From the sequence record OR844650: a stretch of 64,000 nt of DNA; one strand, written 5' to 3'. A model generated the notes under the pieces. That model was not told the origin of the DNA and did not search any database. It was given only the letters and a program-made list of their open reading frames with translations. Source of the stretch: Escherichia phage ECO103 4-12-1. Both the position numbers and the translations under genes were made by a program. Below are positions 35,762 to 36,238 of the stretch, in pieces. Each line of letters starts with the position of its first letter. Position 1 is the first letter of the stretch.

Positions 35762-36238
35762 TTATTTTAGAATGTATAAGTGTTTTTCTGCATTGACCAG
35801 TCGGTGATCAATGATTTCTTTGATAACGTTCCAGTTACCGCCGCCCAAATCGGCTCCAATTTTCGGGAAGTGTACATGAACATCTCGATCAACTTTACAA
35901 AAATAATTTAGATGTTTGAACACATCGTCGATTGCATCATAACTGACATATTTAGCACCGTCATTACCGTACATTTTTTGGGTAATACAGTTTGCAATAA
36001 TCAAATTATCGTTAATTGCTGAATATGCAATTTGTCCAATTCTAAGAAATCCCATTTCCTTTTCATATGCTTTATAATCATCATATGCCATTGGGTAACG
36101 ATTTCTTAGCTCTTTTGCAAAACCTGAACCCATTTTACCCTGTGCGTTACAACCATGAGCAATTATATGTATTGCTGTTTTATCATCTGTAACAGTACTG
36201 AATAATTCAAACAGATTACCTCGGTGTTCATGAATCAT
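35762..36238 (-). CDS. macro-domain-like protein (putative ADP-ribose binding/processing)
   Basis: IIAHGCNAQGKMGSGFAKEL and FPKIGADLGGGNW resemble macro-domain signature blocks. Confidence 0.55.
   Translation of the reverse strand: MIHEHRGNLFELFSTVTDDKTAIHIIAHGCNAQGKMGSGFAKELRNRYPMAYDDYKAYEKEMGFLRIGQIAYSAINDNLIIANCITQKMYGNDGAKYVSYDAIDDVFKHLNYFCKVDRDVHVHFPKIGADLGGGNWNVIKEIIDHRLVNAEKHLYILK

Follow-up and report, generated by a model that had tools for sequence, protein, structure and literature searches.

A divergent macrodomain protein of a PBECO4-type jumbo coliphage, a probable eraser of ADP-ribose on phage DNA or NAD-breakdown products

Introduction

Why would a jumbo coliphage keep a small macrodomain protein, and from which molecule would such a protein remove ADP-ribose? 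The question is raised by an open reading frame (ORF) at positions 35762-36238 of a 64,000-nucleotide (nt) stretch of DNA from Escherichia phage ECO103 4-12-1 (sequence record OR844650), the whole of which is referred to as the window. The source is a jumbo coliphage of the PBECO4/121Q/SHEFM2K type (Asteriusvirus-type) with a genome of ca. 348 kb. A reading made from the sequence alone had proposed that the ORF encodes a macro-domain-like protein which could reverse DarT-type ADP-ribosylation or degrade ADP-ribose-derived immune signals. The gene and its product are called the macro gene and the macro protein below.

Evidence that macrodomains of phages act as counter-defence enzymes is recent: AdfM opposes DarTG2, and Adpp opposes aRES. 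Knockout of Tk.4, the AdfM of phage T4, renders T4 sensitive to DarTG2 (10.1101/2025.11.20.689424), and PhiKZ gp104, likewise named AdfM, clears DarT2 marks from DNA in vitro. Adpp is a macro protein that 15% of phage NARP1 operons encode, and the purified Adpp of Vibrio phage Gary converts the aRES product ADP-ribose-1''-phosphate to ADP-ribose, which feeds the rebuilding of nicotinamide adenine dinucleotide (NAD+) by NARP1 (10.64898/2026.01.28.702374). Macro domains of jumbo phages were catalogued by Iyer et al. 2021, who proposed that Macro and then Nudix proteins process derivatives of ADP-ribose (PMC7824862). The macro gene is not mentioned in the Sharanji and gut jumbo-phage NAD articles.

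We find that the 158-residue ORF is a real macrodomain enzyme gene, already annotated as a macro domain in public records, and its fold, lineage, conserved residues and genomic context are reported here as observed. In its most probable role, the macro protein would take ADP-ribose off phage DNA or off NAD-breakdown products and so defeat host defences.

Results and discussion

The macro gene and its ribosome-binding site are located as follows:

35762..36238, minus strand: coding sequence of the macro gene from the ORF list, with ATG at 36238 and TAA at 35762-35764, 158 amino acids (aa) plus stop
36243..36248, minus strand: Shine-Dalgarno sequence GGAGAA, read from the sequence, 4 nt 5' of the macro ATG

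The sequence-only reading had placed two macro-type blocks in this ORF. Its coordinates were exact and both strings were found, IIAHGCNAQGKMGSGFAKEL as residues 25-44 and FPKIGADLGGGNW as residues 124-136 of the macro protein. Counterparts of the gene are ACQ29_gp028 in PBECO4, M2K_0574 in SHEFM2K and gene 544 in 121Q. Nucleotide identity over the macro region is 100% to SHEFM2K and 99.9% to PBECO4, with PBECO4, 121Q and other Asteriusvirus-type jumbo coliphages at 99.0-99.9%. In related phages the gene carries the public labels 'macro domain-containing protein' (RefSeq), 'Appr-1-p processing domain protein' and 'phosphatase'; since RefSeq already labels it as a macro domain, the macrodomain finding is correct but not new. 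It is the only macro gene in the PBECO4-type genome (tblastn, 362,701 nt).

Several lines of evidence converge on the macrodomain call. A search with the Macro profile Pfam PF01661, one of the checks suggested beforehand, gave a divided result: the alignment spans 115 of the 118 profile positions, but the score of 16.4 bits (E=0.009) does not reach the gathering score of 22. We did not take this sub-threshold score as a refutation, because the evidence from PDB sequences, PHROG and structure is strong. The protein matches PHROG_335 at 1e-45, and phmmer against PDB sequences found BT1257 (8e-16, 61.8 bits) and SCO6735 (8e-12, 48.8 bits) as the best matches among characterised proteins, followed by the weaker Poa1p (ca. 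1e-6) and the DarG macrodomain (2e-3); TARG1 gave no phmmer match among PDB sequences at E<=10. Many of the 167 homologues that we collected carry precomputed PF01661 hits, including many at 40-70% identity.

The fold was also predicted. An AlphaFold2 model built from an input alignment of 46 sequences reached a mean pLDDT of 93.7 and a pTM of 0.90 and has the three-layer alpha/beta/alpha macrodomain fold with a central mixed sheet. Foldseek comparison of this model with the PDB returned BT1257 (3e-11), DarG bound to ADP-ribose (2.5e-10), SCO6735 (7e-10) and TARG1 (3e-9), and these four as well as Poa1p and coronavirus Mac1 were matched with a probability of 1.00 and TM values of 0.72-0.82. 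The predicted fold, structure prediction being part of a check proposed beforehand, agrees with crystal structures of macrodomains. In a viral structure library, the best match was the tk.4 product of Acinetobacter phage 133. The macro protein is a divergent member of the Macro superfamily, not a non-member, and its resemblance to macro proteins is far above chance. Binding of ADP-ribose is probable from the conserved pocket loops, within which D130 is atypical.

The family is overwhelmingly phage-borne. Homologues were found by tblastn in ca. 1,790 phage records, while the bacterial side amounts to 27 loci among ca. 185,000 species genomes. No obvious DarT-like partner was seen beside these bacterial homologues, several of which are orphans in housekeeping or phage-like contexts. 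The homologue of Shigella phage Sf14 (locus L038, 3980-4774; Mooglevirus/Felixounavirus) has 264 aa and a C-terminal extension of ca. 110 aa for which the macro protein has no counterpart, and BFVD matches of 230-260 aa suggest that a two-part architecture is common in phages.

We examined the predicted ADP-ribose pocket in a MAFFT alignment of the macro protein, 120 homologues and reference proteins. Residues of SCO6735 were mapped by phmmer alignment against the PDB chain (chain offset +20) together with the MAFFT columns. The following pocket elements were assigned from the alignment:

36119..36157, minus strand: ADP-ribose pocket loop 1, H28-F40 (HGCNAQGKMGSGF)
35975..35992, minus strand: catalytic strand motif N83-C-I-T-Q87-K88
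35831..35866, minus strand: phosphate-binding loop, P125-W136 (PKIGADLGGGNW)

The most informative reference is SCO6735, a free-standing Streptomyces macrodomain which strips ADP-ribose from DNA thymidine and rescues E. coli from DarT (PMC9411070). In place of the catalytic Lys of DarG and TARG1, SCO6735 employs Gln85, which is held by Asn27. It needs Gln85, Asn27 and Gly126/128: the Q85A mutant is inactive and the G128E mutant has lost most of its activity (PMC9411070). In the macro protein, H28 and N31 occupy the columns of SCO6735 H24 and N27, with H28 also corresponding to Adpp H24 and N31 to DarG N22. H28, G29, N31 and G39 are kept in all 119 homologues with a residue at these positions. 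Q87, which occupies the column of SCO6735 Gln85, DarG Lys80 and PhiKZ AdfM Lys78, is invariant in 120 of 120 homologues. P125 and G128, the latter equivalent to SCO6735 G126, are kept in every homologue with a residue there. With Gln at the catalytic-Lys position of TARG1 and DarG and the locking His and Asn in loop 1, the macro protein belongs to the Gln-type subclass.

Within the phosphate-binding loop (IGADLGGGNW) one residue departs from this pattern. D130 (codon 35849-35851, minus strand) aligns with SCO6735 G128, so that the Gly-x-Gly formed by G126 and G128 of SCO6735 is kept in its first glycine, G128, and replaced in its second. Among the 120 homologues, 42 have D at position 130, 55 have G, 9 have A, 8 have V and 3 have E, and the residue is Gly or Ala in every characterised relative. 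The aspartate is specific to the jumbo-phage subclade that is at least about 50% identical to the macro protein, occurs in essentially all homologues of that range and is present in Salmonella phage Munch; members of the macro-protein clade that adjoin NARP1 genes have Gly. As D130 is conserved, the substitution is presumably functional.

Placement of the macro protein was assessed with a neighbor-joining tree (200 bootstraps, 139 columns) and an all-versus-all phmmer matrix. The macro-protein clade grouped with BT1257 and SCO6735 in 155 of 200 bootstraps. T4 Tk.4, Vibrio phage V07 and the Adpps formed a second group (133/200) with a common EAD..GD..KLG motif, and DarG with PhiKZ gp104 a third (200/200). 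The macro protein is a homologue, not an orthologue, of the two named phage enzymes, AdfM and Adpp, and its nearest biochemically characterised relative is SCO6735.

The likenesses to the first of these groups are considerable. SCO6735 (S. coelicolor, 5E3B) and BT1257 (B. thetaiotaomicron, 2FG1/2AFC) are the best matches in both sequence and structure, belong to the same Gln-type ALC1-like subclass, share H24/H28, N27/N31, N..Q85/Q87 and G126/G128 with the macro protein and are, like it, single-domain orphans without a DarT partner. They differ at an identity of ca. 27% in having Gly where the macro protein has D130 and T86, and in the loop-1 sequence H[IV]CND[IL]G in place of HGCNAQG.

The resemblance to DarG (T. 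aquaticus 5M3E, M. tuberculosis 5M3I) and PhiKZ gp104 lies in the fold and the conserved loop-1 Asn, and their substrate, ADP-ribosylated thymidine on single-stranded DNA, is plausibly the same. PhiKZ gp104 is DarG-like (E=1e-24 to M. tuberculosis DarG), and both form a separate clade with a catalytic Lys (FPTK) as opposed to the Gln of the macro protein. We rejected the macro protein as a DarG antitoxin (NF048014), as it scores 32.9 bits against a cutoff of 250, covers 158 aa against a profile of 338 positions, has Gln for Lys80 and lacks both the C-terminal DarT-binding domain and a darT neighbour. Human TARG1/OARD1 and yeast Poa1p are structural neighbours as well (ca. 3e-9), and both process ADP-ribose substituted at C1'' or 2''. 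The Lys84/Asp125 dyad of TARG1 is one that we take to correspond to Q87/G132 of the macro protein.

Among the possible substrates we favour, tentatively and at somewhat under even confidence, the DarT2-type ADP-ribose mark on thymidine of phage DNA, as judged by analogy with these relatives. This assignment is preferred because the nearest characterised enzyme removes this mark, two phage macrodomains counter DarTG2, and the Adpp pathway is without a partner in this phage (see below). Countering DarTG2 is a proven phage strategy, since T4 Tk.4 (by genetics) and PhiKZ gp104 (by biochemistry) do so, and DarTG2 works in E. coli. The overwhelming predominance of phages among the carriers of the family also speaks for this assignment. 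We infer the substrate, the catalysis and the anti-defence role from the characterised relatives, and the mechanism would run as follows. The macro protein is a small, presumably catalytically competent single-domain ALC1-like macrodomain of the Gln-type lineage of SCO6735 and BT1257, in which loop 1 (H28, N31, G-S-G), the N83..T86-Q87 strand and the P-K-I-G-A-D-L-G-G-G loop would grip ADP-ribose. Q87, locked by N31, would set the distal ribose for cleavage of the C1'' bond by water, as in SCO6735. The substrate would be ADP-ribose put on thymidine of single-stranded phage DNA by host DarT2, and the protein, as an orphan eraser resembling an antitoxin, would allow the 348-kb genome to go on being copied during replication. 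More than one substrate may hold, because macrodomains of the ALC1-like class are often promiscuous.

Several findings weigh against DarT2-mark removal. Support for the tree placement is moderate, because the tree is a simple neighbor-joining tree of 139 columns at 20-30% identity. Orthology to T4 Tk.4/AdfM, which we had assumed at first, was rejected by the all-versus-all scores, by 0 of 200 bootstraps joining the macro protein with Tk.4 and by the absence of the EAD..GD..KLG motif. The two proteins do share PHROG_335, 27-30% identity (BLASTP E=2e-12), the H/N/T-Q catalytic signature, BT1257 as best PDB match and the small single-domain format of a phage protein, but Tk.4 belongs to its own lineage, with a shorter loop after the Gln and Gly at position 130. 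The DNA-contacting K34 and K89 of SCO6735 align with S38 and M89 of the macro protein, with K35 and K88 as neighbours of these positions, and the phage-encoded macro protein is near-neutral (isoelectric point, pI, 6.7) compared with the basic SCO6735 and BT1257. Net charge and pI do not discriminate DNA binding, however, because the validated AdfMs are acidic too. The phosphate loop is unlike that of every characterised relative because D130 stands at the G128 site, and SCO6735 loses most of its activity in G128E. Finally, three of the closest non-jumbo relatives (L009, L010 and L012; 110-131 bits) adjoin NAMPT-like or Prs-like genes, which points to processing of the ADP-ribose pool in that part of the clade.

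This last finding bears directly on a rival explanation, namely that the macro protein is an ADP-ribose-1''-phosphate phosphatase of the Adpp or Poa1p type, which would convert the product of aRES or of 2'-phosphotransferase RNA repair to free ADP-ribose for detoxification or recycling and not for NARP1. The recurrent link of the family to NAD salvage elsewhere makes an Adpp-like role a serious rival, for which the whole PBECO4 genome was examined. Homologues of Adps/Prs and Namat/NAMPT were not found in the PBECO4-type genome (tblastn, three protein pairs, E<0.1, 362,701 nt) and none is annotated, so that no Adps and Namat pair lies within two genes of the macro gene, as would be expected for NARP1-AP. 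A NARP1-AP role was rejected on this whole-genome search. Table S1 of the Adpp preprint (10.64898/2026.01.28.702374) lists no Escherichia phage with a NARP1-associated macro protein. As the NARP1 genes are absent from the genome, an Adpp role would be without a partner in a PBECO4-type phage, and a KptA/Tpt1 is likewise missing from the genome annotation.

Elsewhere in the family, the association with NAD genes is evident. In the unrelated genera Pakpunavirus and Saclayvirus, as seen in Pseudomonas phage C2-10_Ab1 (L036, 1-4480) and Acinetobacter phage B09_Aci05 (L037, 1-4450), a conserved cassette runs from an RNA ligase gene through a Prs-like (Adps) and a NAMPT-like (Namat) gene to the macro gene. 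An RNA ligase near a macro gene recurs in locus L025 and in Vibrio phage V07 (Rnl1, PNK). In Denitromonas iodatirespirans (L010, 1538-5170), a bacterial operon has Prs-like and NAMPT-like genes before its macro gene and ends with NrtR (NUDIX plus winged helix); this macro gene, whose product is 38% identical to the phage protein, is part of an NAD-salvage regulon of the NrtR type.

At the level of the protein, the evidence on the phosphatase is likewise two-sided. The macro protein and Adpp belong to one broad family and the same PHROG, the His mutated in Adpp (H24) is kept as H28, the N-x-Y-[GT]-Q motif is common, some relatives in the macro clade hold the same operon position beside Adps-like and Namat-like genes, and the public labels 'phosphatase' and 'Appr-1-p processing' fit such an activity. 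Matches of 49-59 bits were obtained to macro proteins that accompany NARP1 in Pseudomonas and Acinetobacter phages, but only 16 bits to the validated Gary Adpp, and the macro protein stands outside the Tk.4/Adpp lineage and its motifs. In case of Poa1p, the alignment is significant over macro residues 5-92 only, i.e. the N-terminal half. Of the Poa1p residues named as mutants in PDB titles, H23 is kept as H28, but S30 and F152 are replaced by K35 and G132, so that the Poa1p-type set is not kept as a whole. We had considered Gln87 as a marker to separate a DNA hydrolase from a phosphatase and dropped it: the validated Adpp also carries N-x-Y-G-Q, and the Gln signature therefore cannot split the two activities. 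For the same reason, labels such as 'phosphatase', 'AdfM' and 'Adpp' are not transferable across PHROG_335 by homology alone, because the His/Asn/Gln signature spans different validated activities. Taken with its genomic context, we consider a phosphatase function unlikely.

A second rival reading is centred on NAD+-derived products made by the phage itself. PBECO4 encodes a Sir2 protein (NC_027364 66388-67140, Pfam 3.6e-20) directly beside a Nudt16-like NUDIX hydrolase (65840-66391), as well as a protein with a C-terminal WGR domain (60563-61534, Pfam 1.1e-10), WGR being a PARP-associated domain. Since Sir2 and the WGR protein are encoded, outside the window, the phage would make NAD+-derived products of its own. 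The macro protein could then be an O-acetyl-ADP-ribose deacetylase or ADP-ribose-ester hydrolase that cleans up these products and maybe passes ADP-ribose on to a NUDIX enzyme. The structural neighbour TARG1 is deposited as 'O-acetyl-ADP-ribose deacetylase 1', the Macro-then-Nudix proposal for jumbo phages (PMC7824862) describes such a route, and the fourth gene on the 5' side of the macro gene encodes a NUDIX protein. The Sir2/NUDIX pair is, however, located ca. 40 kb from the macro gene, and there is no experimental precedent in phages. In the same genome, PBECO4 NC_027364 157841-170100 holds ten consecutive plus-strand RCC1-like paralogues ('regulator of chromosome condensation') in a genome that is otherwise almost all minus-strand; this array is outside the window.

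The neighbourhood of the macro gene contains two features that need to be considered here:

36256..36279, minus strand: hairpin AAGGACTCTG-TGAT-CAGAGTCCTT, from a promoter/terminator scan, a perfect 10-bp GC-containing palindrome
37069..37467, minus strand: NUDIX hydrolase, Pfam NUDIX 1.2e-12, fourth gene on the 5' side

On the 5' side, the same strand carries two small ORFs without a family match, a glutaredoxin, this NUDIX hydrolase and a CCA-adding-type nucleotidyltransferase; 3' of the macro gene are two small ORFs and then a head-tail adaptor. The NUDIX hydrolase could not be typed as an ADP-ribose pyrophosphatase, since its best NCBIfam score was 28.6 bits (cutoffs >=97) and its best PDB matches were of the MutT/Ap4A type at ca. 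1e-5. The macro-NUDIX gene order is kept in Munch (61% identity, same phage group) and not in other phage groups; being retained only within one group, it reflects shared ancestry and not independent association. We therefore rejected NUDIX adjacency as evidence for a macro-to-NUDIX pathway, and the deacetylase reading as a whole is improbable. A further NUDIX gene lies at 449-913 (plus strand) beside the tail-sheath gene, and the phage has at least three separate NUDIX hydrolases, to none of which a substrate could be attributed.

The macro gene is separated from the upstream ORF (36288..36530) by 49 nt, and the hairpin sits in this gap. T-rich tails follow it on either strand, the scan scored it as terminator-like in both directions, and judged by its sequence it is a putative terminator-like or RNA-stability element. 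With this element ahead of it, the macro gene would depend for its transcription on read-through or on a more distant upstream promoter.

Two further readings concern other ADP-ribosylated targets. The macro protein could hydrolyse ADP-ribosylated protein or RNA and so reverse host defences of the ADP-ribosyltransferase type (e.g. CmdTAC-like mRNA ADP-ribosylation) or tune phage ADP-ribosylation of host proteins. SCO6735 and TARG1 also strip protein-linked mono-ADP-ribose (PMC9411070), and the promiscuity of ALC1-like macrodomains noted above would fit. No Alt/Mod-type ADP-ribosyltransferase occurs in the genome annotation, however, and the context offers no evidence. T4 carries Tk.4 yet is strongly restricted by CmdTAC, and hence Tk.4 at least does not neutralise mRNA ADP-ribosylation. 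This possibility is distinctly improbable in our view.

In the remaining reading, the macro protein would degrade or sequester immune signals derived from ADP-ribose (Thoeris gcADPR, His-ADPR) or be a non-catalytic ADP-ribose reader. Degradation of soluble ADP-ribose signals by jumbo-phage Macro domains was speculated upon by Iyer et al. 2021 (PMC7824862), and the unusual phosphate-loop residue D130 is the sole hint of altered binding. Against this, in the literature searched no macrodomain of the ALC1-like class is validated in such a role, and the invariant H28, N31 and Q87 argue for an enzyme and not a sponge. The nearest validated analogue is Adpp, and the NARP1 enzymes which Adpp feeds are absent here. 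Accordingly, of the two functional ideas of the sequence-only reading, reversal of DarT-type marks is the best supported, by analogy with SCO6735 and Tk.4, while immune-signal degradation found no direct support and is very improbable.

D130 also allows for a different interpretation of the subclade that carries it. The Rak2/PBECO4-type jumbo phages may hold a third, functionally distinct lineage of phage ALC1-like macrodomains, beside the AdfM(Tk.4)/Adpp and DarG types, in which D130 re-tunes the pocket for a substrate new to phage macrodomains. Candidates for such a substrate would be a product of the phage Sir2 or WGR enzymes or the target of an undescribed ADP-ribosylating host defence. 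We give this interpretation a low probability.

Other genes and repeats were noted in the window. The strand of the macro gene carries genes related to translation and stress, for a CCA-adding-type tRNA nucleotidyltransferase (PolyA_pol head domain; 37579-38691), an HPF/RaiA-like ribosome-associated protein (40291-40623) and a protein homologous to T4 rI.-1 ('starvation-inducible transcriptional regulator'; 47080-47520). ARAGORN found no tRNA genes in the window. Paralogous genes occur as three consecutive tail-tube genes (27182-29846), an adjacent pair of hypothetical genes both of PHROG 20693 (38827-39646), a hypothetical pair of PHROG 18200 with two genes in between (45094-47061) and two hypothetical paralogues of ca. 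900 aa (PHROG 3573; 58090-64000) with a small ORF between them, the second of which runs past the window end.

Conclusion

In conclusion, we carried out a computational characterization of a phage-encoded macrodomain and of the explanations that compete for its function. Counter-defence roles of the family are already published, and what is added here is modest: a lineage apart from both AdfM types and from Adpp, a genome without NARP1 and an acidic residue in the phosphate loop. Large coliphages of the PBECO4/121Q group, under consideration as therapeutic agents for O157 and resistant E. coli, have a lineage that is related to the validated phage macrodomains but separate from them. If the macro protein does erase DarT2 marks, phages would have recruited the same fold independently for a third time, and the gene would help to predict host range on DarTG2-positive strains.

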